A DNA stretch of 64,000 bases from Dehalococcoidia bacterium. Its GTDB lineage: Bacteria; Chloroflexota; Dehalococcoidia; Lucifugimonadales; Australimonadaceae. The notes beneath the pieces were generated by a model. That model saw only the letters and a program-made list of their open reading frames with translations. It had not been told where the DNA came from and made no database searches. Positions 43,663-64,000 of the stretch are shown piece by piece. Position 1 is the first letter of the stretch, and each line of letters opens with the position of its first letter. Where the stretch lies: positions 2,368,520 through 2,432,519 of the forward strand of contig OY764542.1 in the NCBI GenBank assembly GCA_963668465.1, written 5' to 3'. The position numbers and the translations under genes were made by a program.

Positions 43663-44586
43663 TTGCGCATCGGCGTGCCCGACCTCGTCTCGAACTCGTA
43701 TTTCCCTGCAATCGCAGCCGTCGACCTCGGTGCGTTCGAGGCCGAGGGCTTCGAGGCCGACATCGAACTCGTCTTCCCCATCACACGGGCGATGGAGATG
43801 CTGCGCGACGGCGAGCTCGACTACGTGGCGGGCTCGGCGCACGCGGTCCTGACGGCGTTCCCCCGGTGGGAACGCGCATCGCTGCTTGCCGCGCTCGCCC
43901 AGCACATGTACTGGTTCCTCGTGCTCAGGAGCGACCTCGGCGCGCAACGCGGCGACATCGAGGCCGTGAAGGGCCTCCGCATCGGAGCGGCGCCCGGCCC
44001 CCGGGATGGGCTGGAGCAGATGCTCCGCGAAGCCGGCATCGACCCGGAGCGCGACGGCGTGAGCATCGGCCCCGTGCCGGGTGCGACTGGCTCCGGCGTA
44101 TCGTTCGGGGTGCAGGCGGCGAGGGCGCTGGCAGAGGGCGCGATAGACGGCTTCTGGGCGAACGGCATGGGCACGGAGGTCGCCGTTCGCTCGGGGGCGG
44201 GCAGCGTCGTGCTCGATGTGCGGCGCGGCGACGGCCCTTCCGCGGCTCGCGGCTATACATTCCCCGCGTTCGTGACCACCGACCGCAGGATCGCCGAACA
44301 GCCGGACGAGACCGCCGCCGCAGTGCGCGCCATCGTGTCCGCGCAGCGTATGCTGAAGGCCGATTCGTCACAGGCAACTGCGGTTGGCGAGAAGCGCTTC
44401 CCCGCGCAGGAGGCAGGGCTGATCGCAGAACTGATCGAGCGCGATTTGCCGTACTACGACCCGTCGATAACGGAGGGGACGGTCGAGCGGATGAACGGGT
44501 TCGCCCGGCAGATGGGACTGCTCGACGCTCCCGTGCCATACGCACAGGTCGTGGCGACTGGGTCCGCCGGGTTCTGGACGTCTTAA
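43663..44586 (+). CDS. NMT1/THI5-like (SsuA-type) substrate-binding-fold protein, no signal peptide
   Basis: TTG start 5 nt after GGAGGA. MRIGVPDLVSNSYFPAIAAV..., GLRIGAAPG, and DGFWANG resemble nitrate/sulfonate/bicarbonate-type binding proteins. Confidence 0.55.
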   Translation: MRIGVPDLVSNSYFPAIAAVDLGAFEAEGFEADIELVFPITRAMEMLRDGELDYVAGSAHAVLTAFPRWERASLLAALAQHMYWFLVLRSDLGAQRGDIEAVKGLRIGAAPGPRDGLEQMLREAGIDPERDGVSIGPVPGATGSGVSFGVQAARALAEGAIDGFWANGMGTEVAVRSGAGSVVLDVRRGDGPSAARGYTFPAFVTTDRRIAEQPDETAAAVRAIVSAQRMLKADSSQATAVGEKRFPAQEAGLIAELIERDLPYYDPSITEGTVERMNGFARQMGLLDAPVPYAQVVATGSAGFWTS

Positions 44587-44602
44587 GAGTTGTAAGAGAG
44601 GA

Positions 44603-44953
44603 GTGAACGTGGCGAAACCTGAGTTGGAGTTCTTCGACCCCTCGGACATCCCGAGCGAGCCCATCCCGCCGGTGGAGGGCCTCAGCCAGCAGATACTCTC
44701 GCGCGACGAGGTGAGCGGCGACTACACGCGCCTGCTCCGCTTTGAGCCGGGCACGGACACCTCGGCGATGGGCCCGCAAGTCCATGACTTCTGGGAGGAG
44801 GTCTGGATCATCGAGGGCAGCATCCACGACATCCCGCTGAACCAGACGTTCACTGCTGGCATGTACGCCTGCCGCCCGCCCGGCATGCCCCATGGCCCCT
44901 GGATATCGCCAGACGGCTGCCGGACATTCGAGGTGCGGCACTATGAACGCTAA
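44603..44953 (+). CDS. Cupin-domain protein
   Basis: HDFWEEVWIIEGSIHD...GMYACRPPGMPHGP cupin motifs. GTG at 44609 has better spacing to AGGAG than GTG at 44603. Confidence 0.65.
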   Translation: MNVAKPELEFFDPSDIPSEPIPPVEGLSQQILSRDEVSGDYTRLLRFEPGTDTSAMGPQVHDFWEEVWIIEGSIHDIPLNQTFTAGMYACRPPGMPHGPWISPDGCRTFEVRHYER

Positions 44954-45665
44954 CGGAACAGAAGCAACGAAGAGACCCAGCCGGATGCTCACGCTCGACC
45001 ACGCGGGGTCGCCGATGCGATTCCTCGCGCGCAGGCTGCTCGCCGGTGGCTACACGGGCCGCGACCCTGCGGCGGTCGAGGAACACATCGCCGAGCTTGC
45101 GCTTCTGGGCGTGCCGCGCCCGGCGCACGTGCCGTGGATATTCGTTGCGAACCCGCAGGTGCTGCAGGTGGACGGGACGGTCTACGCGTACGACGGCACG
45201 TCGTCCGGCGAGGCCGAGTACGTGCTGCTCATCGGCAGGGACGACATCTTCGTCTGCATCGGCAGCGACCACACCGACCGCGGCCTCGAGAGCCTCTCCA
45301 TCGAGAAGTCCAAGCAGATCTACCCCAAGATACTGAGCAGGCAGGTCTGGCGCCTCGACGACCTCCTGCCCCGCTGGGACGACCTGCGCCTCCGCAGCCG
45401 CGTCGCCGAGGGCGGCGAACCGGAGGACTACCAGGACGGAACGCTCTCCCAGCTCATGCGCCCCGAGCGGCTGCTCGATCTCGTCGGCCCTGACCCCGGC
45501 GCAGGCACCGCCGTCTTCTCCGGCACGCTGCCGGTACTCGGCGGCAACGTCCGCCCTGCCCCCCGCTTCGAAGCGGAGCTCTTCGACACGGACGGGACCC
45601 CGCTCGCATCGCTCGGCTACGACGTCGTGGCGCTGCAACAGCAGGTGCAACCCGACGAACGGTGA
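44943..45665 (+). CDS. DUF2848-like protein
   Basis: GYTGRDPAAVEEHIAELALLGVP...SGEAEYVLLIG...IGSDHTDRGLE pattern, recalled from memory. ATG overlaps the cupin stop. Confidence 0.5.
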   Translation: MNANGTEATKRPSRMLTLDHAGSPMRFLARRLLAGGYTGRDPAAVEEHIAELALLGVPRPAHVPWIFVANPQVLQVDGTVYAYDGTSSGEAEYVLLIGRDDIFVCIGSDHTDRGLESLSIEKSKQIYPKILSRQVWRLDDLLPRWDDLRLRSRVAEGGEPEDYQDGTLSQLMRPERLLDLVGPDPGAGTAVFSGTLPVLGGNVRPAPRFEAELFDTDGTPLASLGYDVVALQQQVQPDER

Positions 45666-45718
45666 GGGGCCTGCGTCCGCTTCAGGCGCTGGCCACCTGC
45701 CGTCCGCGCTGCGGCGGG

Positions 45719-45745
45719 TATTCACCGCATATTCTGCGGTGAATA
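45719..45745. repeat. Perfect 11-bp inverted repeat (hairpin or operator)
   Basis: TATTCACCGCA-tattc-TGCGGTGAATA, 54 nt downstream of the DUF2848 stop, with no U tract. Confidence 0.8.
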
Positions 45746-46123
45746 GAGCCGCTAATCTCCGCACGACGCCTGTCAGTCGCTCTGCGACATCTGCCCCTTA
45801 CGCCGAAACCCGCCCGAGAAGTACGCTGGTGGCATGCTGAGGTTAGTGCTGAGAGGCCGCCCTGCCGGATGCAACACAATGCAACAGAATCTCGGCAGAA
45901 CACCCCTCCACCACACTCCTGACGACCTCCTCTTCAGGAGTAACCGGACTGTTACATAGTGTCGGAATCCCGTTGCATTCGTGTTGCAGGGTGTCCGGGT
46001 GCCCGTTGCATGCTGTTCGCATCAGTGTTGCAGCGCGTTGCCCGAACACCTGCCGCGCTTGACGAATCGCGCGCCGCGAGCGAGAGTCCACACAGACAAG
46101 CCTGACAGGCTCGGAGGAGAACC

Positions 46124-47293
46124 ATGGCGCAGCAGACAGACGTAGCAACGATCGGGAAGGTCAGCATAGACACGGACGCTCGGGCGCCACTGCACCCCTA
46201 CGATCAGTGGGTCGAAACGCTCGATCTACCCGTCCACAAGGGCTACTACGTGGAGGACGTCCGCAACCTGGAGGTCGCCCCGTGGCCGGAGATGGGCTGC
46301 AATGCCGCGTTCATCCAGCTCGCCGGCATGGAGGGCGTCGCCGACGCCCGCATCACCGAGATTCCGCCGGGCGGCTCGACCAACCCCACGCGCTTCGCTC
46401 TGGACGAGGTCGTCTATGTTGCGGAAGGGCAGGGGCTCGCCACGGTCTGGGCTGAGGGCGTCGACCGCAGGACGTTCGAGTTCAGCCCGCGCAGCCTGTT
46501 CGTCATCCCCCGCGGCGCGGTCCGCCAGTTCGCGAACGCGCGCGGCGACCGCCCCGCACGGCTCATCACCAACACTTACCTGCCGGTTGGCATGTCGCTC
46601 GTCCCCGACCCCACCTACTTCTTCAACAGCACCTACGAGGACCCCACACTGCTGGAGACCTCCGAGGACGAGCTGTACTCGGTTGCCAAGCGCTCGCCGG
46701 GCGGGCGCGGCGCGAGCTGGTTCGGCAACTTCTTCACCGACCTCGCGGCGTGGAACGGCCTCGTCCCGCACCGCCAGCGAGGGGGCGGCGGACACGTCGT
46801 GGACATCCAGTTCCCGCACTCGGAGATGGGCGGGCACATGTCCGTCTTCCCGCCGGGCACGTACAAGAAGGCGCACCGCCACGGGCCGGGCGTCGTCATC
46901 ATCATCCCCGCGGGCGAGGGCTACTCCATCATGTGGCCGGAGGGCGAGGAGAAGGTCATCGTTCCGTGGCACGAGGCAAGCATGTTCGTGCCGCCGAACC
47001 GCTGGTTCCACCAGCACTTCAACGTCAGTGTGGAGCCTGCGCGCTACCTCGCGCTCTCCCCGATCCGCCAGATGCGCGGCCTCGCCAACCGCATGAACCC
47101 GCTGCTCGACCAGGTGGAGTACCCGAGCGAGGAGTCCTGGGTCCGTGAGATGTTCGAGGAAGAGCTCGGGAAGCGCGGTCTGGAGAGCCTGATGCCGGAA
47201 GAGGTCTACACGGACCCCCACTACAAGTGGGAGTACGACGCCTCCGAGGAACAGGGCGCAGTCCTCGACGCCTCCGCAGGCCGGGGTCTGTAA
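46124..47293 (+). CDS. Bicupin protein (gentisate-dioxygenase-like fold)
   Basis: Two cupin barrels: ...TEIPPGGSTNPTRFALDEVVYVAEGQG... and ...MSVFPPGTYKKAHRHGPGVVIIIPAGEGYS... RBS GGAGGAG. Confidence 0.55.
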   Translation: MAQQTDVATIGKVSIDTDARAPLHPYDQWVETLDLPVHKGYYVEDVRNLEVAPWPEMGCNAAFIQLAGMEGVADARITEIPPGGSTNPTRFALDEVVYVAEGQGLATVWAEGVDRRTFEFSPRSLFVIPRGAVRQFANARGDRPARLITNTYLPVGMSLVPDPTYFFNSTYEDPTLLETSEDELYSVAKRSPGGRGASWFGNFFTDLAAWNGLVPHRQRGGGGHVVDIQFPHSEMGGHMSVFPPGTYKKAHRHGPGVVIIIPAGEGYSIMWPEGEEKVIVPWHEASMFVPPNRWFHQHFNVSVEPARYLALSPIRQMRGLANRMNPLLDQVEYPSEESWVREMFEEELGKRGLESLMPEEVYTDPHYKWEYDASEEQGAVLDASAGRGL

Positions 47294-47334
47294 GGAGATA
47301 CACGTTCGGGAGGAGGGTGCTTTGCGCCCTCCTC

Positions 47335-48585
47335 CTAGGTCCGCGCAGGCTCGGCCTGCGGCAGCGCTACGTTGCGCAGCGCCGCCCCGAGCAGGGCGAT
47401 AGCCAGGGCGACAGCGACCAGGGCCACACCTGCTCCGGCTACGGCGCTCGGCGCCCCGGTGCGCTCGGCGATGCTGTTCATCATCGCGCCGCCCACCGGC
47501 AGCAGCGCCCAGTGGACGCCGTACAGCGCCATCACGCGCCCGCGCAGGCTGTCCTCCACCAGCGTCTGCAGGATCACCTGCCCCGTCGTGATCTGCATCA
47601 CGCCAACGGCACCTGCGAGGAACAACAGGACGAGCGCCGCCTCGAACCACGGCGTAAGCGCGAACGCGACCAGCGTGGCTCCGAACGATCCTGCCGAGGC
47701 CAGCAGCACGCGCCCCGCGCCCCGCTGCCTGAGATAGCGCGAGTACACGAACAGCCCCACCATAGCTCCCACACCTGCCGACGAGTACATGAATCCCAAC
47801 TCGCGCGGGCTGACGTCATACACCTCGACCTGGAACACCGGGAAGGTGAGCATGTATCCCTGCCCGAACGCCGAGCAGGCCAGCGCCAGCAGCAACAGCG
47901 GGCGGAAGACCGGGTGGCTCCATACGTAGGAGGCCCCCGCCTTCAGGTCGCCCAGCATCGTTCCGTGCCGTCCGACGGCTGCCTGCTGAGGATGGACCAT
48001 CCGCATCACCGCGGCCATCGCGGCTGCCCCGGCGGCTGCAACGAAGAGGCTCGGCCCCGCTCCCGCTGCCGCGATGACGAACCCGGCGATGGACGGCGCC
48101 ACGATGCGTGTGGACGACCACGCCACCGACGTGAGCGGCACCGCTATCGGTATGAGCGACCGGTTCGGCAACAGGCGTGGGAAGAACGACGCCCGGGCCG
48201 GTTCGTCGAACGACTGCACCAGCCCGATCATCACCGCCGCTGCTGCCAGGTGCCACACCACCGCCTGGTCGGTGATCGCGAGCACGGCGAGGGCCATCAG
48301 CACGGCGACGGCGGTCGTCTGTGCCGCAACGACGAGTGTCCGCGGGTCGAAGCGGTCGGCGAGCACGCCGCCCGCAAGGTTCACGACGAGGCGAGGGGCG
48401 GCGCTCACGAGGTTGATGAGCCCAAGAGCCAGCGCCGACTGCGTCAGGTCATAGGCCAGCCACCCGAGGGTGACGATGGTCATCTGCTGGCCGGTGACCT
48501 GCGCGACCAGCCCGAACCAGAAGAGCCGGAAGTCCCGGTAGCGCAGCGCAGTGAAGAACTCGGCGAAGCCGCCGAACAGCCTCAC
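47335..48585 (-). CDS. MFS transporter
   Basis: 12-TM protein; FRLFWFGLVAQVTGQQM..., GGVLADRFDPR. The GTG start overlaps the upstream gene's stop (GTGA). Confidence 0.8.
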   Translation of the reverse strand: MRLFGGFAEFFTALRYRDFRLFWFGLVAQVTGQQMTIVTLGWLAYDLTQSALALGLINLVSAAPRLVVNLAGGVLADRFDPRTLVVAAQTTAVAVLMALAVLAITDQAVVWHLAAAAVMIGLVQSFDEPARASFFPRLLPNRSLIPIAVPLTSVAWSSTRIVAPSIAGFVIAAAGAGPSLFVAAAGAAAMAAVMRMVHPQQAAVGRHGTMLGDLKAGASYVWSHPVFRPLLLLALACSAFGQGYMLTFPVFQVEVYDVSPRELGFMYSSAGVGAMVGLFVYSRYLRQRGAGRVLLASAGSFGATLVAFALTPWFEAALVLLFLAGAVGVMQITTGQVILQTLVEDSLRGRVMALYGVHWALLPVGGAMMNSIAERTGAPSAVAGAGVALVAVALAIALLGAALRNVALPQAEPART

Positions 48586-49340
48586 GGCGTCTCCGGAGTC
48601 TCGTCGTCTTCGGCCGCTGCTGCTGTCTCCGGCGGTGCAACACCCAGGTGGTTCCTGAAGAACGCGAACGTCCGCTCCAGCGACTCCGCCGCTCCCGCCT
48701 CCCGCCGCGCCGAGGAGTCCTGGTTCGGGTTCAGGAACGAGTGCCCCAAACCCTCGTACATGAACAGCTCGTACTGCTTCTCGTAGTAGTCGAGGGCGGC
48801 GCGGAAGGCCTCGATCTCCGCGATGGGCGTCGTGTGATCGTTCGTGCCGTAGTGGCACATCATCGGCACGCGGATGTTCTCCAGTTCCGCCGAGTCGGGG
48901 AAGAGGCTGTGGTAGTAGACCACGCCCGCCCCGAATGTGTTCGTGCGCGCCAGCGCCAGCAGAACGAGCCCACCGCCGAGGCAGAAACCCACGACGCCCA
49001 CCGGCGCGTCGTCCGGTGTCCACGGCAGCGAGCGCAGGAAGTCGGCCCCGGCGCTCAGGTTCTCAACCGTCCGTTCCACGTCCAGCGAGTTCTTGTAGTG
49101 CAACTGCGTGGCGCGACCCTCGGGCAGCGCGCCATCGAACAGGTCAGGGGAGAGCGCGACGAATCCGGCGCGGGCGAATGTTCGCGTGATCTCGCGCTGG
49201 AACCAGTTGAGCCCGCCCATGCCGGAAATGACGACAAGCCCCGGATGCGGACCCCTGTCCGCCGGTCTGCCAACGTAGCCGTCCACGAACCCGTTGGGGC
49301 CGTCGTATCCCGCGTGGATCGAGAGGATGCGATGCGCCAT
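48582..49340 (-). CDS. Dienelactone hydrolase family protein
   Basis: GLVVISGMGGLN, nucleophile elbow GFCLGG, C-terminal GLGHSF; RBS GGAGG. Confidence 0.8.
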   Translation of the reverse strand: MAHRILSIHAGYDGPNGFVDGYVGRPADRGPHPGLVVISGMGGLNWFQREITRTFARAGFVALSPDLFDGALPEGRATQLHYKNSLDVERTVENLSAGADFLRSLPWTPDDAPVGVVGFCLGGGLVLLALARTNTFGAGVVYYHSLFPDSAELENIRVPMMCHYGTNDHTTPIAEIEAFRAALDYYEKQYELFMYEGLGHSFLNPNQDSSARREAGAAESLERTFAFFRNHLGVAPPETAAAAEDDETPETP

Positions 49341-49456
49341 GCCACACCTCCTGCGGCCTGCATCATAGGGCGGGTCACCTGTGGCGACAACCGCTCCGAC
49401 CTGGAGCGGGTCTCCCTAGTCCCCACTGAGCGCGCCGTTGTAGAGGCGATGCTCGC

Positions 49457-51496
49457 TCAGCGGACGCTTGCCGACGGCGATGGCATCGCCTTGCTGAGCG
49501 ACAGCGGAGCGAGCGGGACCGCATCGTTCAACGGGTCACGGCTCTTCGCCGCTTCTACGTAGCGATCCGCGTCCTCTTCCAGCAGGAGCCCCGCAGCCTG
49601 CAACTGCCGGGCAGCCTCGGCCACCTGGCGTACGTAGTTCTCGTGGGACGCGTACCGCTCTTCGATGGAGCGGCGGGGATCGCCGCTCGCCTCCCGTTCA
49701 GCGCGCGTTCGGGCGAAGGGCACGAAGCTGCCCGCCAGCGACGCGAGGTCGCCCTCGGCGAAGCCCGCCCTGCGCAGGTTCCATCCCGTGTGCGTGCCGA
49801 CGGGGACCATGACCTCCGGCGAGCGCAGCCCGCCGAGGTCGTTCCCGTCCTCGTCCACCAGCGGCATCTGCACCGTGTACTCCTTGCCCGGCATGGGCTG
49901 CGGCGGATGCTCGGTGACCAACCCCCGGTCGAAGTCGGGCCCGTAGTCGTACAGCGGCAGGCGGCTGGGGCTCGCTGGCGTGGGGAAGCCGGGCACCCTG
50001 GGGAACGCTGCAAAGGCTTCTTCAGGCGTCACCAGTGTGCCATTGGCCCGGCGGGGCACGATGCTCGGCGGCGGAGGGGCGCCATCGGTCACCCAGCGGT
50101 GCATCATCGTAAGGACGGCCCGCATCAACGGCCCGTTGTTCATCACGTTGGAGCGCTGCTGGCAGATGTCGTCAGGGGATGGCATCACGCTCGTGTGCTG
50201 CGCGCTTGCGAGGAAGTAGACCCGCACCGCGTCCGGGAACTCGATGTCCTCGCCTGTGCGCGGGCTCGTGTGTCCGAGCGATGCGTGACGGTTCCAGTAC
50301 TCGGTATTCGTGTGCGTGTGCACGACAAGCGGGTCCGCCTCGGGTCGCTTCGTGACGCAGTCCAGCGAGTCCGAGAAGGCGTCTGGGGTGACGGAGTAGG
50401 CGAACGGGTAGCGCTCCGATGGCCACTGATGCTCCTCGTGCTGGCGTGGGTAGCGCCCCACCTGGGCGAACCGGGCGTTCGTGAACAGGCGCCCCGCGCC
50501 GGAGACGTGCGGGTAGGCAGCGGCGAAGACCTTCCGGCCCTCAGGGTCCGTGTTGTACCCGTCATAGATGAACTGGCGGATGACGCGCGCGCTCAGCGAC
50601 GCTCCATAGATGTACGCCCGTTCGTGTCCAGCGAGCGGGTTCGGCGCGCCATCTGCGTCGACGGTGTCATGGAGCAGCATCGACACGAGGTCGCGGATGC
50701 TCACGATGCCGAGCCCCATGACGCGGGAGCCCTCCGTTTCGTAGACCAGCTCGTAGATCCAGCCGGGTTTGAAACCATCCTTTATGTAGCAGGCCGTCGA
50801 CGACGGGCGCACCTGCAATGCGCCGTCGACCATCTCCGCCTCAGCGAAGGCCCAGGCGTCCGGCGGGAGAGGAACACGCGGGTCGCGCTCGTGTTCGCGC
50901 AGCGTCATCGTTGCGTGGGACGTATCGAGGTCGAGCGCGGGGTAGGAGCGGATGGTTGGCGCGCCACTCAGCGGCATCCAGAGCACGCCTTCCTGTTCGG
51001 CGATGAACTCCTGCCGCACCTTCCCCCGTACCGGCTCGCCGTTCTCCAGGGCCTCCGGCAGATCGATGGTGAGGAGGCCGTCGCCCGCCAGAAGGTCGCC
51101 CTGCCAGCCGGACCAAACGACGGTGTAGCCCTGCCGCATCAGAAAGCCGTTACCGGCAGCAGCGAGCGTGAGGGGGTCGTTGTCCGGCGGGGCGTCGTTG
51201 AATACCCGCACGACCGTCTTGTTCCCCCGGTTATTGACGCCGTACAGCAGGCATCCGTTTCCCCGCGCAGGGTCGACGGGCTTCAGGATGTCGAGGTCGG
51301 CTCTGAACTCGACGGCGCCGTTCGCGTTGCGGGGCGCCAGCGCCAGGTCGACGACGTTCGCGTTGGCAGGGTCGTCGGGGTCCAGTTCGAAGAACGCCGA
51401 TCCGGTCAGTCGCTCGTAGGGTCCCGTATCTCCGAAGGGAAATCCCTCAGCGAAACTCACCTGTCGCTCGATGCTCAGCCGCACCTTGGTGTTCAT
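49457..51496 (-). CDS. Large alpha/beta-hydrolase-like protein, unknown substrate
   Basis: 679 aa from MNTKVRLS (RBS GGAGGA). GPYERLTGSAFFELDP..., GVNNRGNK and GWQGDL blocks resemble an uncharacterised alpha/beta hydrolase family. Confidence 0.5.
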   Translation of the reverse strand: MNTKVRLSIERQVSFAEGFPFGDTGPYERLTGSAFFELDPDDPANANVVDLALAPRNANGAVEFRADLDILKPVDPARGNGCLLYGVNNRGNKTVVRVFNDAPPDNDPLTLAAAGNGFLMRQGYTVVWSGWQGDLLAGDGLLTIDLPEALENGEPVRGKVRQEFIAEQEGVLWMPLSGAPTIRSYPALDLDTSHATMTLREHERDPRVPLPPDAWAFAEAEMVDGALQVRPSSTACYIKDGFKPGWIYELVYETEGSRVMGLGIVSIRDLVSMLLHDTVDADGAPNPLAGHERAYIYGASLSARVIRQFIYDGYNTDPEGRKVFAAAYPHVSGAGRLFTNARFAQVGRYPRQHEEHQWPSERYPFAYSVTPDAFSDSLDCVTKRPEADPLVVHTHTNTEYWNRHASLGHTSPRTGEDIEFPDAVRVYFLASAQHTSVMPSPDDICQQRSNVMNNGPLMRAVLTMMHRWVTDGAPPPPSIVPRRANGTLVTPEEAFAAFPRVPGFPTPASPSRLPLYDYGPDFDRGLVTEHPPQPMPGKEYTVQMPLVDEDGNDLGGLRSPEVMVPVGTHTGWNLRRAGFAEGDLASLAGSFVPFARTRAEREASGDPRRSIEERYASHENYVRQVAEAARQLQAAGLLLEEDADRYVEAAKSRDPLNDAVPLAPLSLSKAMPSPSASVR

Positions 51497-51600
51497 GCTC
51501 TTCCTCCGCTGGGATAGCGCCAGACAGAGATTAGACGAGTCACAGGCGTTCGTCGACGGCGACCGCCAGAACGGCTGGCTGCGAGCGTACAATCCCCACC

Positions 51601-52872: not shown

Positions 52873-52877
52873 TTCGC

Positions 52878-54524: not shown

Positions 54525-54536
54525 CGTCGTCCTCCC

Positions 54537-55595: not shown

Positions 55596-55680
55596 AGCGT
55601 CCTCCCCTCGCGCTCTACGCCCTGCAGCACTGTAACGGCACTTAACCACCGCACCAACCGCCTGTCAACGAACGGCAGGC

Positions 55681-56004: not shown

Positions 56005-56017
56005 CGGCACGCTCCTC

Positions 56018-56563
56018 CTAGAAGAAGGTGTTGACCACCTTCGGGAGGAGCACGTTCTGGTCCAGGATGACATCGCGCTTGACGATCTTGAACACCGTGT
56101 CGGGGTCGCGCCTGAGCGTGTCGTACCGCCTGCCGACGAACAGGTTCACCTCGTCCTGCAGGCGGTTCTGGTAGCAGAAGAACTTACTGCTCACCCTGAC
56201 CTCATCACCTTTCAATTCAAGCAGCAGGATGTTGGAGATGATGTGCGCGAAGCGGGAGACCGGCTCTTCCGCCCAGTGCACACCTGAGTTGATCTGCCGG
56301 ACCCTGCCGGTCAGGATGTCCTTCCCCTCGTCGAAGTAGGAGATCTCCGATTCCGGATCGCTGTACTCCAGGTCCCAGTCGCCGAACTTGATGTTCCTGC
56401 GGATGGGCATCCAGTAATGGATGTCCTCTGCCAGCAGGTCGAGCCATTCGTTGAGCCTGCGCTCATCCAGGAGAAGCGCTTCCCAGTAGAGGAACTGTTC
56501 GATGTCTTTCAGCAGGACGACCCGGTCCATCTCCTCCAGAGCCGCGTTGGCGCGTTCCGTCAT
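56018..56563 (-). CDS. Aromatic ring-hydroxylating dioxygenase, beta (small) subunit
   Basis: 181 aa, SnoaL/NTF2-like. IEQFLYWEALLLDERRLNEWLDLLAEDIHYWMP and its position after the alpha subunit support the call. Confidence 0.85.
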   Translation of the reverse strand: MTERANAALEEMDRVVLLKDIEQFLYWEALLLDERRLNEWLDLLAEDIHYWMPIRRNIKFGDWDLEYSDPESEISYFDEGKDILTGRVRQINSGVHWAEEPVSRFAHIISNILLLELKGDEVRVSSKFFCYQNRLQDEVNLFVGRRYDTLRRDPDTVFKIVKRDVILDQNVLLPKVVNTFF

Positions 56564-56612
56564 CCCATGACTCCCTTCGTGCTGCCTGCCCCGGTCCGCC
56601 TGGGTTGCGCTC

Positions 56613-58013
56613 CTACCAGATCCGGTGCGACTTCGCTCTGTTTATCGGGTAGAGGTCGTCCCAGCTGGAGGCCTCCATGAAGGCGAGCCATCTGCTGAAG
56701 CGCGCGCGGTGCGCCTCCTCGGTGTGCGAACCGTTGAACACGACACCGGGGTGCTGGTCGCTCTCGATCCCACGCCCCAGCCCATTGGCGAAGAAGTAGT
56801 TGCGCTTGCGAGCCCTCGCCCCCTGGCTGGCGGCGTAGACGTAGTTCCAGTTCTCCATGTCGTCCGACTCGGTGGCCCCGGTCGGCCCGTTGTACCGCAT
56901 CACATAGTGGCGAACGGCGTCCTTCACGTGCTTGGGCGCGTTCTTGTCGACACCGAACAGGCTCCACCGCTCGACGACTCCAACGGTGTGCGGGTGCCAC
57001 CAGCGCCACCGCCAGCTGTCCATGATGAAGTTGGGGAACACGCAGAAGTGTCCGCCCTCGTGGCCGTGGGGAGGGAGTATCCGGTCGGCGTACTTCGCTG
57101 CCTTGCGGTCGCGAGTCTCGCGGAAGTAGTCGTCGACCCCGGCCTCGAACCAGGTGTCCACGTACTCAGGCACGCCGGGCTGCTGATACACGGTCCAGTT
57201 GCCGCCGTGGCCGAGGTTGTGGTCGCCGGCAGCGTACCGGTCTGCAGGGAACGGAGCGCGCCTCTTGTGGCGTTCGCCCCCGGACATGGTCCCGCGGTCG
57301 GGTCCTATGGCCGCAGCATTCACCGAGCGATGGGTCATCGCTGCGTGCGTCAGGTCGGTCGATGAGGAGAACGCAGGCACCTTCCAGTTCGTTGGCAGGC
57401 GCCACTTCTGAAATGGCCTGAAGACCTCGATGCCGGCCTCTTCTCCGTCGCTCGCCTCGCAGTCGTACCGGATCCCCTCGGCGAAAGGCCCGACGTAGTC
57501 CTCGAATGAGGGGGCCTTCGGGTCCCAGGTTGCCCAAAGTGAGCCGTAGTAGTTCTTGAACTGCGCCACCGGCGTCAGCCCCCACTGCTCTCTGTCGATG
57601 CCGCCGTCGTAAGCGTAGGGAGCGTACTGGTAGGCTGCTCCCACCAGAGCGCCGTTGCAGTCGTAGGTCCAGGCGTGGAACGGACAGGTGAACACGAGAG
57701 CGTTGCCCTGGTCGTATCGGCAGACCTTCATGCCCCGGTGAGCGCACGAGTTGAGGAAGGCGCGAATCTGGTTGTCTTTGCGGCCACGTATCACCAGCAC
57801 TTCTTCCGTGCCCATCCGTGTCACGATGAAGTCGCCCGGATTCGGTACCTGGCTCTCATGGCCCAGGAACAGCCAGCATCGACCGAAGATCTGCTCCTGC
57901 TCCTGTTCGAAGATGTCCTCGTTGACGTACAGCTCCCGGCTCACCGTGCCGCCTTCGGTATCGATGAGCGTTCGAAGAGACCGGTCCCCGCGTGCCGTGA
58001 TGAGATTCGCCAT
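56613..58013 (-). CDS. Rieske [2Fe-2S] aromatic ring-hydroxylating dioxygenase, alpha subunit
   Basis: Rieske CAHRGMKV...CPFHAW. Mononuclear-iron motif DLTHAAMTH (D-x2-H-x4-H). Confidence 0.88.
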   Translation of the reverse strand: MANLITARGDRSLRTLIDTEGGTVSRELYVNEDIFEQEQEQIFGRCWLFLGHESQVPNPGDFIVTRMGTEEVLVIRGRKDNQIRAFLNSCAHRGMKVCRYDQGNALVFTCPFHAWTYDCNGALVGAAYQYAPYAYDGGIDREQWGLTPVAQFKNYYGSLWATWDPKAPSFEDYVGPFAEGIRYDCEASDGEEAGIEVFRPFQKWRLPTNWKVPAFSSSTDLTHAAMTHRSVNAAAIGPDRGTMSGGERHKRRAPFPADRYAAGDHNLGHGGNWTVYQQPGVPEYVDTWFEAGVDDYFRETRDRKAAKYADRILPPHGHEGGHFCVFPNFIMDSWRWRWWHPHTVGVVERWSLFGVDKNAPKHVKDAVRHYVMRYNGPTGATESDDMENWNYVYAASQGARARKRNYFFANGLGRGIESDQHPGVVFNGSHTEEAHRARFSRWLAFMEASSWDDLYPINRAKSHRIW

Positions 58014-58303
58014 GGCGCTTCTTCCTCTCTCCTTATGCGTGGGCGGGAGGGGTGTCCAGAAGGGTAGCCGCAGATTTCCTGATAGGAGGCACTAAACCAC
58101 CGGGACTCCCGGCTGTCAAATGCGCGGCTGGAGGAGCGATCAGGTGCAAGCTGGGCCTGGATGGCGGGTTCCTCCACACGTTCGGGAGCTCGGAGCACTG
58201 GCCGAGGTGCACTTGTGTATACGAGGCATGCGTATATACTGCGCGGCAGGCGCACATTCGGAACGATGGCTCGTTGCATGCAGACTCACGTTGGAGGCTG
58301 ATT

Positions 58304-59584
58304 ATGCTAACCGCCGAACAGAACGAACTCCTATGCCGCATCGGCCCCGGCACTCCTATGGGCGAAGTAGTTCGACGCTATTGGGTCCCCGCCTTGCTCT
58401 CGTGGGAACTCGCACCCGATGGGGCACCAGTCCCGTTCAGACTCCTTGGTGAAGACCTGGTGGCGTTCAAGGACACCAGCGGCCGCATCGGGGTGCTTCA
58501 GTCCTTCTGCGCTCACCGCGCTACGCCCTTGTGGCTTGGCCGTAACGAGGAGAACGGGCTTCGCTGCCTTTACCACGGCTGGAAGTACGATGTTGACGGC
58601 AACTGTGTCGACCAGATGAACGAGCCGGATGAGCTGCGTTTCAAAGAGAAGATCAAGATCCGGTCTTATCCGAACGTAGAGGTAGGTGAGGTTGTCTGGG
58701 TGTACTTCGGGCCGGCCGACAGACAGCCGCCGCCACCGAACTTCGAATGGACGCAGGTTCCTCCCACCCACAGGGACGTCTCGAAGGTCGTCCAGGACTG
58801 TAACTGGGTGCAGGCGGTAGAGGGCGGGATCGATCCGTCCCATGCCCCGGTCCTCCACGGAGCGATAAGTGTGGAGGCTGGGCCTGAGGCTGGACTCCAC
58901 CCCAACTATGCGTCCATGCGTGCGAAGCCAGGGAAGTACGAGATTCGGATAACCGACTACGGGCACGAGTTCTGGGCTGTCCGCCCCCTGCCTTCCGAAG
59001 GAAAGGAGTTGGTGCTCTCGCACCACTTCGTGGCTCCGTGGACTCAGATCCGTTCTGTCCAGAAGCCGTATCGCTCTCCAGGCCACATGTACGTGCCGAT
59101 CGACGACGAACACTGCATGGTCTGGAACTGGGAGTACAGCTTTGGGGAAGAGCCTCTCTCGGACTCAGAGCGCGAGAGCGCGGACATCGGAATGGCAAAC
59201 GGCCCGAGCGCAGTAGACCAGAAGACCTTCCGGTCGAAGATAGGAGCGGAGCAGGAATGGGGGCTGGACCGAGAGTACCAGAAGACCATGTCCTATTCCG
59301 GTATCCGGGGAGTGAACCAGCAGGACCGGGCCGTTCAGGAAGCGGTGGGGCCGATTGTCGACCGCTCCGTCGAACGTCTTGGGCCGGCTGACCAGCCCAT
59401 CATTCAACTTCGGCAAGTGCTTTTCGATGCCGTGAAGACGGTCGCCGATGGAGGCGACCCACCTGGCACGGGGACTTCGTACTACGGCTTGCGCGGTATC
59501 GCGAAGCTTCTCGAAGCCGGGTCTGACTACAAGGGGCAAACGCTCGGCGAGATGCACCCGGCTGAGTTCGCCGGGTCGCGATAG
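58304..59584 (+). CDS. Rieske non-haem iron oxygenase, alpha-only (phthalate/vanillate-family-like)
   Basis: Rieske CAHRATPL...CLYHGWKY. NWVQAVEGGIDPSHAPVLH iron motif. ATG at 58304 after GGAGG. Confidence 0.85.
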   Translation: MLTAEQNELLCRIGPGTPMGEVVRRYWVPALLSWELAPDGAPVPFRLLGEDLVAFKDTSGRIGVLQSFCAHRATPLWLGRNEENGLRCLYHGWKYDVDGNCVDQMNEPDELRFKEKIKIRSYPNVEVGEVVWVYFGPADRQPPPPNFEWTQVPPTHRDVSKVVQDCNWVQAVEGGIDPSHAPVLHGAISVEAGPEAGLHPNYASMRAKPGKYEIRITDYGHEFWAVRPLPSEGKELVLSHHFVAPWTQIRSVQKPYRSPGHMYVPIDDEHCMVWNWEYSFGEEPLSDSERESADIGMANGPSAVDQKTFRSKIGAEQEWGLDREYQKTMSYSGIRGVNQQDRAVQEAVGPIVDRSVERLGPADQPIIQLRQVLFDAVKTVADGGDPPGTGTSYYGLRGIAKLLEAGSDYKGQTLGEMHPAEFAGSR

Positions 59585-59633
59585 GCCGTGGCGAACGTTC
59601 CGGCCATGCCCTTAGGCAGAGCTGTTCTCTAGT

Positions 59634-61394
59634 ATGGCTGAGGCGACGAGTCCAGGGCGCGTAGGGATAGGCCCACGCCTGTTGGACGCGGTGCGCATCG
59701 GCCCGGCGTCAATTGTCTTCACGCTCGTCCTCGGGGTCGTCGCCCTTGTTTCCGTCTATCCCATCCTGTTGCTCTTCCTGAACAGCCTGCAGGTAGGACA
59801 ATTCGGTACGGACACCACGTTCGGATTCGACAACTGGGCGGCCGTGTTCCAGGAGCGCCAGCTTCGCGACGCATTCGTGAACACGGTTACGCTCACGGGC
59901 ACTCGCCAACTGATAGCGTTCTTCATAGGCGTTGGTCTTGCCTGGGTCTTTGCCAGGACGGACTTGCCGCACAAGGGCTGGCTGGAGTTCGGCTTCTGGA
60001 CCGCCTTCTTCATTCCCTCATTGCCCGTCGTCATCGCTTGGTCGCTGATGTTGGACGGGAACCGGGGGCTCTTCAATCAGTTCCTGATGCAGCTCCCATT
60101 CATCGATGACGCGCCGTTCCAGATCTATTCGTGGTGGGGCATCACGTTCATTCACCTGATGACCACGACGGTCGCCATAAAGGTCATGCTCCTCACCCCG
60201 GCATTTCGCAACATGGACGCCTCTCTCGAGGAAGCGTCGCGCATCGTCGGCGCAGGCACGCTCAGAACGCTGTTCCGGGTGGTTGTGCCTGTGATGGCCC
60301 CAACCATCCTCGTGATATTCCTGCTCGGGACGATTAAGTCGATGGAGGCGTTCGAGGTCGAGCTCATCCTTGGGTCACCAGCCAGGATCGACGTCTATAG
60401 CACCTTGATCTACCGCCGTGTTCTGCTCAAGGAACCACCGGAGTTCGGCGAGGCCATGGCCCTCAGCATGATGGTTCTCGCACTCCTCTTGCCCTTGATC
60501 GTTCTGCAGCAATGGATAAGCAGGCGGCGAAGCAGCCAGACGATTTCCGGCAAGTACTCTGCTCGTCTGCACGAGCTTGGTCGGCTTCGCTGGCCTCTGT
60601 TCTCCGTTATCGCCTTTATGGTCCTGATGATGACGGTCTTCCCAATCATCATGGTCACACTCGGCACATTCATGAGGCTGTTTGGTTTCTTCGATATCCC
60701 CAACCCGTGGACGGTAAAGAACTGGGTCGTAAGCCTTTCAGACCCGCGGATCCTGGGAGCGCTCAAGAACACCTTCCTCATCGGCATAGGCGCTGCACTC
60801 TTTTCGATGGCTGCTTTCTCGCTTATCGCCTATATCAGCGCCAGAACGCGTTTCGCGGGCAGACACGTGCTCGACTTCCTGACCTGGCTGCCTGCAACGA
60901 TCCCTGGCATCGTGATCGGACTTGGCTTCTTGTGGCTATTCCTCCGGACTCCCGGCCTCAACCTGCTCTACGGAACGATGTTCGTCCTCGTGCTTGCAGT
61001 GAGCCTTGCGAGCATCACGTTGGGAGTACAACTGCTCAAGACCAACATGATGCAGATAGGCTCCGAGCTGGAAGAGGCTTCGTGGGTGAGCGGGGCCTCG
61101 CACCTATATACCTTCCGGCGGATATTCCTTCCGCTCATAGCCCCGGCCTTGGTACTCGTGGGGCTGCTCTCCTTCGTGCAGGCCGCGAAGGCGATCAGTG
61201 TGGTGGCCCTCCTGTCGACAAGGAGTTCTGAACCGCTTTCGATGCTGCAGCTCGACTATATGGCCGAAGGGAAATTCGAGGAAGCGTCCGTGATTGGACT
61301 ACTGATACTGCTGCTCACTCTCGGCATGGCTGCGGGAGCGCGCCTCTTGGGATTGAAGCTTCGAGGCATCTCGACAACCGACCCATCCACGTAG
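59634..61394 (+). CDS. ABC transporter permease, fused two-domain (12-TM) type
   Basis: 586 aa with two BPD_transp_1 repeats: EEASRIVGAGTLRTLFRVVVPV and EEASWVSGASHLYTFRRIFLPL. Confidence 0.85.
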   Translation: MAEATSPGRVGIGPRLLDAVRIGPASIVFTLVLGVVALVSVYPILLLFLNSLQVGQFGTDTTFGFDNWAAVFQERQLRDAFVNTVTLTGTRQLIAFFIGVGLAWVFARTDLPHKGWLEFGFWTAFFIPSLPVVIAWSLMLDGNRGLFNQFLMQLPFIDDAPFQIYSWWGITFIHLMTTTVAIKVMLLTPAFRNMDASLEEASRIVGAGTLRTLFRVVVPVMAPTILVIFLLGTIKSMEAFEVELILGSPARIDVYSTLIYRRVLLKEPPEFGEAMALSMMVLALLLPLIVLQQWISRRRSSQTISGKYSARLHELGRLRWPLFSVIAFMVLMMTVFPIIMVTLGTFMRLFGFFDIPNPWTVKNWVVSLSDPRILGALKNTFLIGIGAALFSMAAFSLIAYISARTRFAGRHVLDFLTWLPATIPGIVIGLGFLWLFLRTPGLNLLYGTMFVLVLAVSLASITLGVQLLKTNMMQIGSELEEASWVSGASHLYTFRRIFLPLIAPALVLVGLLSFVQAAKAISVVALLSTRSSEPLSMLQLDYMAEGKFEEASVIGLLILLLTLGMAAGARLLGLKLRGISTTDPST

Positions 61395-61424
61395 CCCAGA
61401 CAAGAGGCGGGCGCCCTGCGCTGA

Positions 61425-62561
61425 TCAGGCGGCGACCCCCCATGCTTGGGCCTGCAGCGCATCGAAGTGCAGGGAGATGTCCTGACCTTCTTCCCAGTCC
61501 TCGGACACAGGGAGGTAGATCTGCACATCTTGGCCCCACGGAAGACGCACCCGTGCTTCGTATCGTTCTCCGACGAAGAGGATCGCGGCAATAGAGCCCA
61601 CGAGTTGCGCGCTGTCATTTGAGCCGTCGGCGACACGAATCACATCGACGACCTCCGGCCTGACCGCAACGCTGCATCTCTCGCCGGGCCGAAGCACGCT
61701 GCCGGTCGTGACGCGGGCCCGGATGACAGGTCCTCCCGGCTCCTCGAGTTGCACTGGAATCGTTTCGGAGTTGCCGCCGCTGGCAACCGTGCCTGTGAAC
61801 ATCACAGTTCGCCCAAGGAAGTCTCGTACTGCCGGAGTCTGCGGGTTCCTGTACAAATACGTAGGGGTGCCGACCTGTTCCACGTTGCCGTGGTCCATCA
61901 CAACGATGCGGTCCGAGAGGCTGAGTGCTTCGATCTGGTCGTGGGTGACGAATAGGACAGTGATGCCCAGGCGGCGCTGGAGTTCCTTCAACTCAACCCG
62001 CATCTGCTCACGGAGCTTGGCGTCCAAGTTCGAGAAAGGCTCGTCGAGGAGGAGCAGATTGGGCTCGAACACGAGGCTACGGGCAACCGCGACTCGTTGC
62101 TGCTGGCCACCGCTGAGCATCGTCGATTGACGGTCGCCCATGCCTGTGAGCCCAACTTGATCGAGGACCTTGGCCACTCGCTCCCGAGTCTCGGACCGTC
62201 CGACTCTCCTCACGTTCAACGGGTAGGCGACGTTCTCGGCGACCGTCATGTGAGGCCAGATGGCGTAGGACTGGAACACCATGCCCATGTTCCGCTTGTT
62301 CGGCGGCACGAAGCTCCGGCTGTTGCCGCTGTCGATGACCATGCCTTCGTAGAGAATCTCCCCACTCGAAACACGTTCGAGGCCGATGGCCATGCGAAGA
62401 GTGGTCGTCTTTCCGCATCCGCTCGGCCCGAGCAGGGTAAGCACTTCCCCTTGGCGAACTTCGATGGACGCGTCCTTGACTGCTTCCACTGCCCCGAAGC
62501 GTTTCCAGACGTTGCGGAGTTCCAATAACGTTTGGCGCTCTGTGGCGGCTGAATCGGTCAT
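61425..62561 (-). CDS. ABC transporter ATP-binding protein (PotA/FbpC/MalK-like, with C-terminal TOBE-type domain)
   Basis: GPSGCGKTT, LSGGQQQRVAVARS, LLLDEPFSNLD. Confidence 0.88.
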   Translation of the reverse strand: MTDSAATERQTLLELRNVWKRFGAVEAVKDASIEVRQGEVLTLLGPSGCGKTTTLRMAIGLERVSSGEILYEGMVIDSGNSRSFVPPNKRNMGMVFQSYAIWPHMTVAENVAYPLNVRRVGRSETRERVAKVLDQVGLTGMGDRQSTMLSGGQQQRVAVARSLVFEPNLLLLDEPFSNLDAKLREQMRVELKELQRRLGITVLFVTHDQIEALSLSDRIVVMDHGNVEQVGTPTYLYRNPQTPAVRDFLGRTVMFTGTVASGGNSETIPVQLEEPGGPVIRARVTTGSVLRPGERCSVAVRPEVVDVIRVADGSNDSAQLVGSIAAILFVGERYEARVRLPWGQDVQIYLPVSEDWEEGQDISLHFDALQAQAWGVAA

Positions 62562-62709
62562 GAAGTATTGGCCTTGTCTCCTGTGGCTTAGCGGTGCAAC
62601 GGGAGCCGTTGGGAACTGCGGCGCAGCTTACGGGCGTGAATCTCGGAGGGTCAAGCTTGCCACGTGGCCGAATCCTTAACGAAACTCGTACAACGCTGCG
62701 AATCCGTCC

Positions 62710-62738
62710 TTGACACACGAGTCAGATAGCCCTATAAC
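62710..62738 (+). promoter_or_regulatory. Near-consensus sigma-70 promoter upstream of the binding-protein gene
   Basis: TTGACA (62710-62715), a 17-nt spacer, then TATAAC (62733-62738). This leaves a ~150-nt leader before ATG 62893. Confidence 0.5.
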
Positions 62739-62892
62739 GACTGGCACGCTACAACATCGATAGCGTGGCCCGCGACGATTGCAGTTGCTGTCCGACGGGA
62801 GGACTGAGGCTACGAGCGATCAAGGCAGATATTCGCCGTGGGCTTTCTCCCGAACGTCGGCATCGGTCGCTCGTCCGAGAAAGGAAGTTCCC

Positions 62893-64000
62893 ATGAGAAG
62901 GTCACTGTTGTCAGCGCTGTTGGTGGTATTTGCGGGAGCGCTGGCGTTGATGGTAGTCGTTGCGTGTGGCTCGGACCCCACGCCGACTCCCGCGCCTACG
63001 CCTACGCCAGTCGTTGTGGAAGTCGAGGTTCCGGTCGAAGTCCCGGTAGAAGTGCCGGTCGAGAAGGTAGTGACCGCGACTCCGACGCCTCCAGGCGCTC
63101 ACGTGGCAGAGTGGGCTGCAGTGCAAGAGGCGGCCAAGAGCGAGAAACTGGTCATCAACACCAAACCCGGAGATGGTGCGAACTTCCTGATAAAGGAGTT
63201 CAAGAGGACATTCCCGGACATTGAGGTGGAGCACACCACGGCCTTTCCCAGCAGGTTCGGACCGCGGATCATCGCTGAGCAACAGGCTGGCCAGTACCTC
63301 TGGGATGTCATGGCCAACTTCGCGGGGAACATGACCAACGTCATGGCGCCCGCCGGCACGTTCCAGGACCTCGAACCCTTCCTGATACTGCCCGAGGTGA
63401 CCGACGACGATAACTGGTACCTGGGCTTTGATGTGTACGGCAACGACGCCAGCGGGCTCGACCAGGTCTTCTACTTTGCCATGGACCTGCGAGGCGGCTT
63501 CTACGTCAACCGTGATCTGGAGCCGGCCGGCCTGACAGACGTTGACGAACTGCTCGACCCCAAGTGGAAAGGGAAGATACTCATCCATGACCCCGCTGCA
63601 AATGGAGGCGGCACAGCGGCGATCGGATCCCTGCTCGCCTTCAAGGGCGAGGAATTCGTCACCCAGTTGCTCAGGGACCAGGAGCCGATCATCATCGAGG
63701 ACCCGCGCACAACTGCGGAGTGGATGGTCACGGAACGCGTGCCTATCGGCATCGGGGTGTACGACAACTTCCTGGACGAGTTCAACTCTGAGGGCGTAGG
63801 CCTGTCCATCGAGCGAAGATTGGGTTGGGGGCACATCAGCCCGGACGGGTTCGCCGTGTACAAGAATGCGCCTCACCCCAATGCTACAAAGGTCTTCGTC
63901 AACTGGTTCCTCGGCGACGACGGCCAGCGCATCTGGGCCTCCACGATGGCGAACAGTCGCCGTAAGGGGATGCCGCATCACCCGTTCCAGAACCACCCGG
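62893..64000 (+). CDS. Lipoprotein ABC substrate-binding protein (family-1, iron/polyamine-like), 3' end outside the window
   Basis: Signal peptide plus lipobox MRRSLLSALLVVFAGALALMVVVAC|GS, a P/T and (VEVP)n linker, then an SBP_bac_1-like body. The frame stays open to the window edge, so it is absent from the ORF track. The antisense ORF 62911-63996 was rejected. Confidence 0.75.
   Translation, partial: MRRSLLSALLVVFAGALALMVVVACGSDPTPTPAPTPTPVVVEVEVPVEVPVEVPVEKVVTATPTPPGAHVAEWAAVQEAAKSEKLVINTKPGDGANFLIKEFKRTFPDIEVEHTTAFPSRFGPRIIAEQQAGQYLWDVMANFAGNMTNVMAPAGTFQDLEPFLILPEVTDDDNWYLGFDVYGNDASGLDQVFYFAMDLRGGFYVNRDLEPAGLTDVDELLDPKWKGKILIHDPAANGGGTAAIGSLLAFKGEEFVTQLLRDQEPIIIEDPRTTAEWMVTERVPIGIGVYDNFLDEFNSEGVGLSIERRLGWGHISPDGFAVYKNAPHPNATKVFVNWFLGDDGQRIWASTMANSRRKGMPHHPFQNHP

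Follow-up and report, generated by a model that had tools for sequence, protein, structure and literature searches.

Between positions 43663 and 64000 of a 64,000-nucleotide stretch of DNA from a Dehalococcoidia bacterium (assembly GCA_963668465.1, contig OY764542.1, positions 2,368,520-2,432,519; the whole stretch is called the window here), genes for oxygenases, hydrolases and transporters follow one another over short gaps, with no gene for a regulator among them. The locus raises the question of whether such a run encodes one pathway. The sequence-only reading had suggested one island for the uptake and breakdown of an N-acylated or amide/ester-linked aromatic compound. The comparison with related genomes makes it probable, in our judgement, that 43663-64000 is the junction of three independently inherited catabolic cassettes (M1, 43663-49340; M2, 49457-58147; M3, 58148-69349) in a paralog-filled genome of the sponge-associated SAR202 group VII, Dehalococcoidia.

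The source genome is a single contig of 3.24 Mb with a guanine-plus-cytosine (GC) content of 65.5%. Because of this high GC content, the genes were called by codon-position GC and then checked against Pfam. Curated models were taken from NCBIfam (equivalog and subfamily cut-offs), solved relatives were sought in the PDB, and RNA motifs in Rfam. Synteny was followed in 30 relatives, 18 of them congeners, by a DNA search with the 20 kb and then by tblastn maps of the fetched loci. Each gene class listed in the sequence-only reading was confirmed by Pfam at or near the position given there (Table 1).

Separate inheritance of the three cassettes

In the DNA search of the relatives, the 20 kb splits at fixed breakpoints. 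M1 begins after a P-type ATPase gene and comprises, in order, the NMT1-like, Cupin_7 and DUF2848 genes (A1-A3), the bicupin (B), and the MFS_3/DLH pair (C1, C2); its position is kept in nearly every congener, and A1 adjoins the ATPase gene in most congener loci that extend that far. In G001, G018, G012, G016, G017, and G008, the tblastn maps place the ATPase gene with A, B, and C at one locus and D and E (with or without F) at another, and where M2 stands apart in this way, either the E pair has the opposite orientation or E and F have changed places. An RCC1-repeat gene directly follows the DLH gene in G016 and at locus L017; in this genome it is found 22 kb further on. The homologs of module A and of D1 (Abhydrolase_10) lie on different contigs in the outgroup G026. 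In the tree of the locus (FastTree, ATPase-to-DUF2848 region), the split genomes branch off at the base, and the contiguous ones form a single derived clade, in which G001 is nested as an exception. The M1-M2 contiguity is derived within one subclade. Smaller linkages are real (A1-A2-A3, C1-C2, D1-D2, E-F, and G1-H3), and Cupin_7 with DUF2848 is found as an independent unit in other phyla.

M3 is located between the upstream region of the Rieske alpha gene of M2 and the stop codon of a LigB gene. The empty site is preserved in G003 and G005, where the sequence corresponding to window position 58147 is joined to that of 69350, and the occupied site is seen in this genome and in G006, which means that the insertion is shared with one of the 18 congeners searched. 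The block stands at other loci in G012, G010, and G007. Its genes are ordered as LigXa-type Rieske, permease, ATPase, binding protein, LigXa-type Rieske, PrpD, and luciferase-like, and it also holds an amidohydrolase-2 gene. In G003 and G005, which are without M3, the LigB gene is placed ~140 bp upstream of the Rieske alpha gene, in a co-directional run that includes a nucleoside hydrolase gene.

The lower GC of the M3 insert (0.613, against 0.655 for the genome) and its occurrence at different sites in different species would fit a mobile genomic island that has brought a foreign degradation pathway by horizontal transfer. This explanation is highly improbable for the locus, as 43663-58147 has a GC content of 0.664, near that of the genome, and all the genes have congeneric orthologs (77-100% identity) and many paralogs within the genome. 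No integrase or transposase domain was found among the called genes of the window and its right flank, no tRNA gene was found at the block, and no target-site duplication was seen at the M3 junctions.

A single pathway for one N-acylated or amide/ester-linked aromatic compound, under a regulator encoded elsewhere, is very unlikely, in spite of the dense packing of the DLH, Abhydrolase_10, and D-aminoacylase-like hydrolases with ring oxygenases and transporters, and of the contiguity of the run in about ten related genomes. Its units are found at separate loci in the basal congeners, and the last 5.9 kb are part of the M3 insertion. The run comprises at least six transcription units in both orientations and three different transport systems, its enzymes each belong to sets of many paralogs, and it has neither a dihydrodiol dehydrogenase nor a ferredoxin or reductase among its called genes. 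No cognate regulator lies in or beside it. No enzyme of 43663-64000 reaches an NCBIfam equivalog cut-off, and the one subfamily model that is passed is that of the Rieske beta subunit; this agrees with the earlier statement that no textbook route fits. The synteny comparison, proposed together with the single-pathway claim, shows that the block as a whole is not co-inherited, and does not support the claim.

Table 1. Features of 43663-64000 with the matches that support them (E-values, or bits where stated)
Feature	Positions	Strand	Support
A1, NMT1/THI5-like protein, cytoplasmic (M1)	43663-44586	+	Pfam NMT1_2 27.6 bits and NMT1; single copy
A2, Cupin_7 protein, 116 aa (M1)	44603-44953	+	PF12973 1.9e-10
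A3, DUF2848 protein, FAH fold (M1)	44892-45665	+	Pfam DUF2848 1.3e-56
Dispersed intergenic repeat with TGCAAC/GTTGCA arrays	45719-46053		seven similar arrays elsewhere in genome
B, bicupin (M1)	46124-47293	+	Cupin_2 at residues 77-148; second cupin at residues 231-302 vs 3bu7, E 6e-6
C1, MFS_3 (EntS-like) transporter (M1)	47335-~48570	-	codon-position GC; Pfam MFS_3 1.8e-34
C2, dienelactone hydrolase family, DLH (M1)	48582-49340	-	Pfam DLH 6.3e-37
D1, Abhydrolase_10 protein, 679 aa, cytoplasmic (M2)	49457-51496	-	PF20091 4.7e-38
D2, MFS_1 transporter (M2)	51601-52872	+	Pfam MFS_1 1e-45
E1, D-aminoacylase-like Amidohydro_3 hydrolase (M2)	52878-54524	-	Pfam; PDB 1m7j, 3gip
E2, PF04909 (Amidohydro_2) protein, ARO-like (M2)	54537-55649	-	PDB 6omp PtmU3 2.8e-46; 8uyr DitZ 2.2e-29
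F0, 107-aa acidic open reading frame (M2)	55681-56004	-	no Pfam match
F1, Rieske dioxygenase beta subunit (M2)	56018-56563	-	Ring_hydroxyl_B 1.4e-36; PRK10069 subfamily 172 bits, cut-off 145
F2, Rieske dioxygenase alpha subunit, toluene/biphenyl/HcaE type (M2)	56613-58013	-	PDB 8k0a HcaE 9.2e-81
M3, left 5.9 kb in window	58148-64000		part of 11,202-bp block 58148-69349
G1, alpha-only phthalate-family Rieske oxygenase (M3)	58304-59584	+	Pfam Rieske and LigXa_C; PDB 9ina 9e-85, 7fhr 1.1e-77, 7fjl 2.4e-74
G2, fused double ABC permease (M3)	59634-61394	+	two BPD_transp_1 domains; best NCBIfam PhnU2-like, under cut-off
G3, PotA/PhnT2-like ABC ATPase with TOBE_2 (M3)	61425-62561	-	Pfam; NCBIfam matches under cut-off
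G4, lipoprotein solute-binding protein (M3)	~62890-64098 (past window end)	+	SBP_bac_8, SBP_bac_11

Regulator scarcity and the weight of contrary evidence

The absence of a transcription factor from the 20 kb, already noticed in the sequence-only reading, is confirmed. Pfam detected no DNA-binding domain in the called genes of the stretch, and six-frame searches of the whole genome with hidden Markov models of 13 Pfam regulator families gave no match between 43.6 and 75 kb of the window. The genome-wide counts are TetR 0, GntR 0, AraC 0, ArsR 0, LysR 2, MarR 2, OmpR 2, LuxR 3, and XRE 23 (mostly small frames, the nearest at about 75.3 kb of the window). The IclR helix-turn-helix model gave two weak matches, one of them at a MarR locus (at most one IclR protein), and PadR one weak match. 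TetR gave no match in 16 of the 18 congeners, and across the order (30 relatives) it is found 0-1 times per genome. With roughly one regulator per 300 kb, excluding XRE, a regulator-free 20 kb would be expected here by chance. The stretch has no regulator because ligand-sensing regulators are almost absent from the genome: this scarcity is genome-wide, and for TetR order-wide, and is not a property of the locus.

Other means of local control were sought with similar results. The candidate sigma-54 activators were rejected, the matches being weak and generic to AAA+ proteins (20-30 bits), with the control firing in archaea too. Loss of a regulator that is kept in relatives was also rejected, since the extra genes at the M1 loci of congeners code for Fic/DUF4172, NUDIX, and small-cupin proteins, and the D-E loci that stand apart in G001 and G018 are likewise free of regulators. 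The homologous cluster with DUF2848 in Amycolatopsis, by contrast, includes a GntR/FCD regulator gene. Rfam gave no riboswitch or other cis-regulatory RNA at E <= 0.1, and scans for promoters and terminators gave counts no higher than in shuffled controls.

The array of TGCAAC/GTTGCA hexamers before the bicupin gene was considered as a shared or locus-specific operator and ruled out, because the repeat that carries it is dispersed over the genome, next to unrelated genes, both housekeeping and catabolic. This repeat is ~250-300 bp long and has 5-7 GTTGCA/TGCAAC hexamers phased at ~10-11 bp, with flanking motifs in common. The other copies (near genome positions 1428023, 1497107, 1556931, 1782688, 1813021, 1937280, and 2227698) adjoin genes such as leuS and those for a carbamoyltransferase and a polyprenyl synthase, and the site upstream of the bicupin gene is variably occupied among congeners. 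The repeat looks like a small mobile or iteron-like element. With so few ligand-sensing regulators in the genome, constitutive expression of the cassettes, or expression under global control, would be most likely.

Several points weigh against the reading of three independent cassettes. At least ten genomes of one clade have M1 and M2 side by side (83-95% identity of the DUF2848 proteins), and the two may have been kept together there because they cooperate in function. The adjacency of E and F survives the rearrangements, so some co-inheritance is real. The tree was computed from one 4.8-kb locus, and the split genome G001 is nested in the contiguous clade. The census of regulators comprises 13 Pfam families of the many DNA-binding folds, and the 23 XRE-type proteins enter it as a count. 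Constitutive expression is what we infer from these counts.

The first of these points could also be taken further, to an adaptive supercluster in which the M1-M2 junction has been selected, with ring-fission products of M2 feeding the FAH-fold and DLH enzymes of M1 and a composite pathway emerging. The enzymology of the two cassettes is complementary, with oxygenases in M2 and carbon-carbon or lactone hydrolases in M1, and the contiguity in the clade of at least ten genomes would be explained. We regard this as unlikely. G001, nested in the contiguous clade, has M1 and M2 apart again, the turnover of Fic, NUDIX, and small-cupin genes between the M1 genes suggests neutral rearrangement, and M1 and M2 share no common promoter or regulator. 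The insertion of M3 has separated the LigB gene from the Rieske alpha gene with no evident cost.

In the preferred reading of three cassettes, M1 would be the resident unit beside the P-type ATPase gene, M2 a mobile unit, and M3 a block that came to lie between LigB and the Rieske alpha gene. Every cassette has a transporter of its own, and its substrate is probably distinct from those of the other two.

Gene content and predicted chemistry of the cassettes

The reactions given in this section are those that we infer from family membership and conserved motifs. In M1, the fold of A1 begins at residue 1, in agreement with the earlier description of this protein as signal-less, and a PDB sequence search gave no solved relative of it. 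A2 consists of the cupin domain alone, without the anti-sigma part of ChrR. The true start of A3 is probably near 44985. By sequence, no solved relative of DUF2848 was found; the AlphaFold model of A3 (pLDDT 84.9) matches many fumarylacetoacetate-hydrolase (FAH) family structures in Foldseek with a probability of 1.00 and a TM score of ~0.6, the neighbours being Cg1458, fumarylpyruvate hydrolases, HpcE, and FAHD1. By this predicted structure, DUF2848 has the superfamily fold of the FAH enzymes. Its alignment shows invariant E82, E84, D101, H102, and D104 (numbering of the first row), of which E82, E84, D101, and D104 are compatible with a Glu-Glu-Asp metal triad, as judged from the alignment. 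A1-A3 and the nucleoside hydrolase gene are single-copy in the genome, and bicupin B is one of 27 paralogs. Bicupin B gave no NCBIfam match, and the matches of C1 are all under cut-off. The nucleophile elbow of C2 is of the cysteine type (GFCLG, at residue 118).

The bicupin would cleave a dihydroxy-aromatic ring, and the DUF2848 and DLH proteins would hydrolyse the resulting beta-diketo-acid or lactone products. M1 is similar to the gentisate pathway in that a bicupin is paired with an FAH-fold protein structurally near the fumarylpyruvate hydrolases. The similarity of B to gentisate 1,2-dioxygenase is, however, distant and weak (E 6e-6), a maleylpyruvate isomerase is missing from M1, and the DUF2848/Cupin_7 genes of other phyla accompany amidases or nitrilase-family enzymes instead of bicupins.

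DUF2848 and Cupin_7 form a cross-phylum gene pair associated with C-N hydrolases; Cupin_7 genes of the A2 type adjoin DUF2848 in Alphaproteobacteria, Amycolatopsis, and Solirubrobacterales too. The Amycolatopsis cluster (L042, 8560-14540) includes a nitrilase-family gene and a flavin reductase gene, with the GntR/FCD regulator gene at its start, and in Solirubrobacterales (L038, 5257-11586) the pair is accompanied by an amidase and an NMT1-like gene. By analogy, these partners hint at a role in amide or N-heterocycle catabolism. Fic/DUF4172, NUDIX, and small-cupin genes are variably present between the M1 genes among congeners; the Fic/DUF4172 gene (370 aa) stands between DUF2848 and the bicupin in several of them (L002, 7242-8354; L004, 15230-16342; L005, 5837-6949) and is missing from this genome, G003, and G018.

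In M2, D1 has a putative serine elbow (GASLS, residues 297-301); it has no solved relative in the PDB, and its neighbours in the protein atlas are all uncharacterised PF20091 proteins. In general, the atlas yielded family names and nothing more specific. D2, divergent to D1, gave weak, below-cut-off NCBIfam matches to aromatic-acid/H+ symporters. E1 aligns with D-aminoacylase (1m7j, 2.5e-33) and N-acyl-D-glutamate deacylase (3gip, 1.1e-30), and its H-x-H metal site is HCH at residues 61-63. With 113 bits against a cut-off of 340 for the NCBIfam subfamily model, its assignment as D-aminoacylase-like is at the family level only.

The name 'ACMSD-like', given earlier to E2, is not retained. The N-terminal metal motif of ACMSD is H-x-H, whereas that of E2 is D-S-H, and E2 matches ACMSD only at ~1e-12, far from its match to PtmU3. 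The D-S-H, SLHI, Glu, and DYPH elements of E2 align with the ligands of PtmU3 and DitZ, and these diiron oxygenases, which the protein resembles in sequence, are the best of its solved relatives. The amidohydrolase-related dinuclear oxygenases (ARO enzymes: PtmU3, DitZ, SfbO, AibH2) are recognised by an N-terminal D-x-H on the first barrel strand and, after ~200 residues, a C-terminal D-x-P-H-x-[D/E] (PMC13154177). E2 has the PF04909 fold, the N-terminal motif (D40-S-H42), and the aligned His, Glu, and D-x-P-H ligands; it differs from the ARO enzymes in its C-terminal DYPHAN, in which the final position is Asn instead of Asp or Glu, and in the lack of an adjacent Rieske ferredoxin gene. Because of this Asn, it is described here as ARO-like and is not filed as an ARO member.

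Eight PF04909 paralogs in the genome have N, A, or G at the final motif position, and the strict ARO motif occurs in ~20 other PF04909 open reading frames. A clade with D-Y-P-H-x-[N/A/G] and the D-x-H of the ARO enzymes includes paralogs at genome positions 980363, 1425422, 79529, 1483126, 1481879, 1474677, and 45297. These motifs suggest that part of the 'amidohydrolase' (PF04909) expansion of SAR202 may be oxidative instead of hydrolytic.

F2 has the Rieske and D-x2-H-x4-H motifs and, besides HcaE, matches the biphenyl dioxygenases (~1e-70); its 289 bits are far under the HcaE equivalog cut-off of 830. F0, encoded downstream of the beta subunit gene, is 77-94% identical in congeners, where it accompanies the Rieske alpha/beta pair, and two further paralogous trios of this open reading frame with beta and alpha genes are found in the genome (49% and 32% identity). 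F0 is likely a real accessory protein of this type of dioxygenase. The best matches of F2 and F1 are HcaE and HcaF of the E. coli Hca/Mhp route for 3-phenylpropionate, and models of MhpB-type 3-carboxyethylcatechol dioxygenase are among the best matches of the LigB-type gene directly next to F2 in G003 and G005. Unlike that route, the locus has no HcaC ferredoxin, HcaD reductase, HcaB dehydrogenase, MhpC-F, or HcaR/MhpR regulator. In M2, E2 would hydroxylate and F2/F1 dihydroxylate the substrate, with D1 and E1 hydrolysing an ester or amide side group; the ancestral arrangement would also cleave the ring through LigB.

In M3, G1 has the features of the phthalate family (Rieske CxH...CxxH, D-x2-H-x4-H iron site, LigXa_C-type domain, and no beta subunit) and is one of ~59 paralogs in the genome. 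F2 and G1 are by their sequences of the HcaE/biphenyl and the phthalate type, respectively, so that the two Rieske alpha genes of the 20 kb belong to different families; the catalytic motifs are intact in all three Rieske alpha proteins, the third being the LigXa-type neighbour of G1 (H1) beyond the window end. G1 and H1 are like the phthalate 4,5-dioxygenase system (PDB 7fjl, 7v25, 7fhr) in having both motifs and no beta subunit, with full-length matches at E 1e-74 to 9e-85. They are unlike it in that G1 has no adjacent phthalate-dioxygenase-reductase (PDR) type reductase, dihydrodiol dehydrogenase, or decarboxylase, and has an ABC importer at its side. As G1 is one of so many paralogs, its substrate is probably not phthalate, and the discussion of these enzymes in Saw et al. 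(2020; PMC6946804) is to the same effect. G4 has a signal peptide, a lipobox-like VVAC, and then a Pro/Thr linker, and matches Fe3+-binding proteins weakly. The predicted role of M3 is to take up a solute, which its two alpha-only Rieske enzymes would then oxidise.

The flanks of the run differ in character. On the left are housekeeping genes (ilv/leu, trpA, DAHP synthase, ribF, tyrS, and the P-type ATPase). The earlier description of a 20-kb block is correct as to a dense and intact set of uptake, oxygenase, and hydrolase genes, but its extent was set by the window end, and the catabolic genes continue to about 71.3 kb. Beyond 64 kb, Pfam detects the second LigXa-type Rieske protein, MmgE/PrpD, a luciferase-like oxidoreductase, Amidohydro_2, the LigB extradiol dioxygenase, and the nucleoside hydrolase. 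They are followed, after ~71.3 kb, by the RCC1-repeat gene and a defence-like pair, in which an M78 (ImmA/IrrE-like) peptidase gene adjoins a SMODS nucleotidyltransferase gene (L001, 12105-14314; window ~74.6-76.8 kb). An XRE-type helix-turn-helix match (genome 2443844) is located near this pair, possibly a CBASS-like defence locus just past the catabolic region.

Paralog expansion in SAR202 group VII

The genome contains ~59 LigXa-type and 4 alpha/beta-type Rieske alpha genes, 80 PF04909 open reading frames, 27 bicupins, and 34 PotA-like ATPases. The loci with 83-95% identical DUF2848 proteins belong to bins from sponge metagenomes, which bear the labels SAR202, Dehalococcoidia, or Chloroflexota. 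One of them, MPMJ01 ('SAR202 cluster bacterium bin16'), has the same genes in the same order with 92-100% protein identity. In the account of gene content given by Saw et al. (2020, mBio; PMC6946804), MPMJ01 is a sponge-symbiont member of SAR202 group VII and has the highest copy number of ring-hydroxylating dioxygenases, 62 in 3.22 Mb, most of them annotated as phthalate 4,5-dioxygenase. The present genome, with ~63 Rieske alpha genes in 3.24 Mb, is closely comparable, and in both genomes these are mostly phthalate-family and alpha-only, with few beta subunits. The genome thus belongs to the Rieske paralog expansion of group VII. That account is one of gene-family counts, without a description of this locus; the present comparison adds how the locus is built from modules, the 11.2-kb insertion, and the scarcity of regulators.

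Ferredoxin, reductase, and dihydrodiol dehydrogenase genes are missing from the called genes of the block, and only about four Fer2-domain frames of the size of a phthalate-dioxygenase reductase are found in the genome, all far from the window. Therefore, the Rieske oxygenases must be reduced in trans by reductases encoded elsewhere.

The stretch is one local and unexceptional sample of the oxygenase expansion that has already been published for SAR202 group VII; what is new are the exact boundaries of the cassettes, the scarcity of regulators (of which no mention was found in the literature searched), and the ARO-like reassignment of E2. A wider proposal can be put forward only tentatively. 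Members of group VII may run ~60 Rieske cassettes and ~80 amidohydrolase-2 genes almost without ligand-sensing regulators, under always-on expression or an undescribed global control; without ties to a local regulator, the cassettes could be shuffled freely from one locus to another, and the clade of E2 (D-x-P-H-x-N/A/G) may be a new branch of dinuclear oxygenases alongside the Rieske dioxygenases.

In general, the result is mainly a correction: contiguity in one genome suggested a 20-kb pathway, and the congeners show a chance junction of cassettes. The locus also provides a mapped example of how the oxygenase families of SAR202 are organised, in small, transporter-linked cassettes that move between loci and have no local regulators. 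If regulator families besides TetR prove to be as scarce across the order, this matters for the way in which these abundant bacteria use their oxidative enzymes on refractory organic matter.

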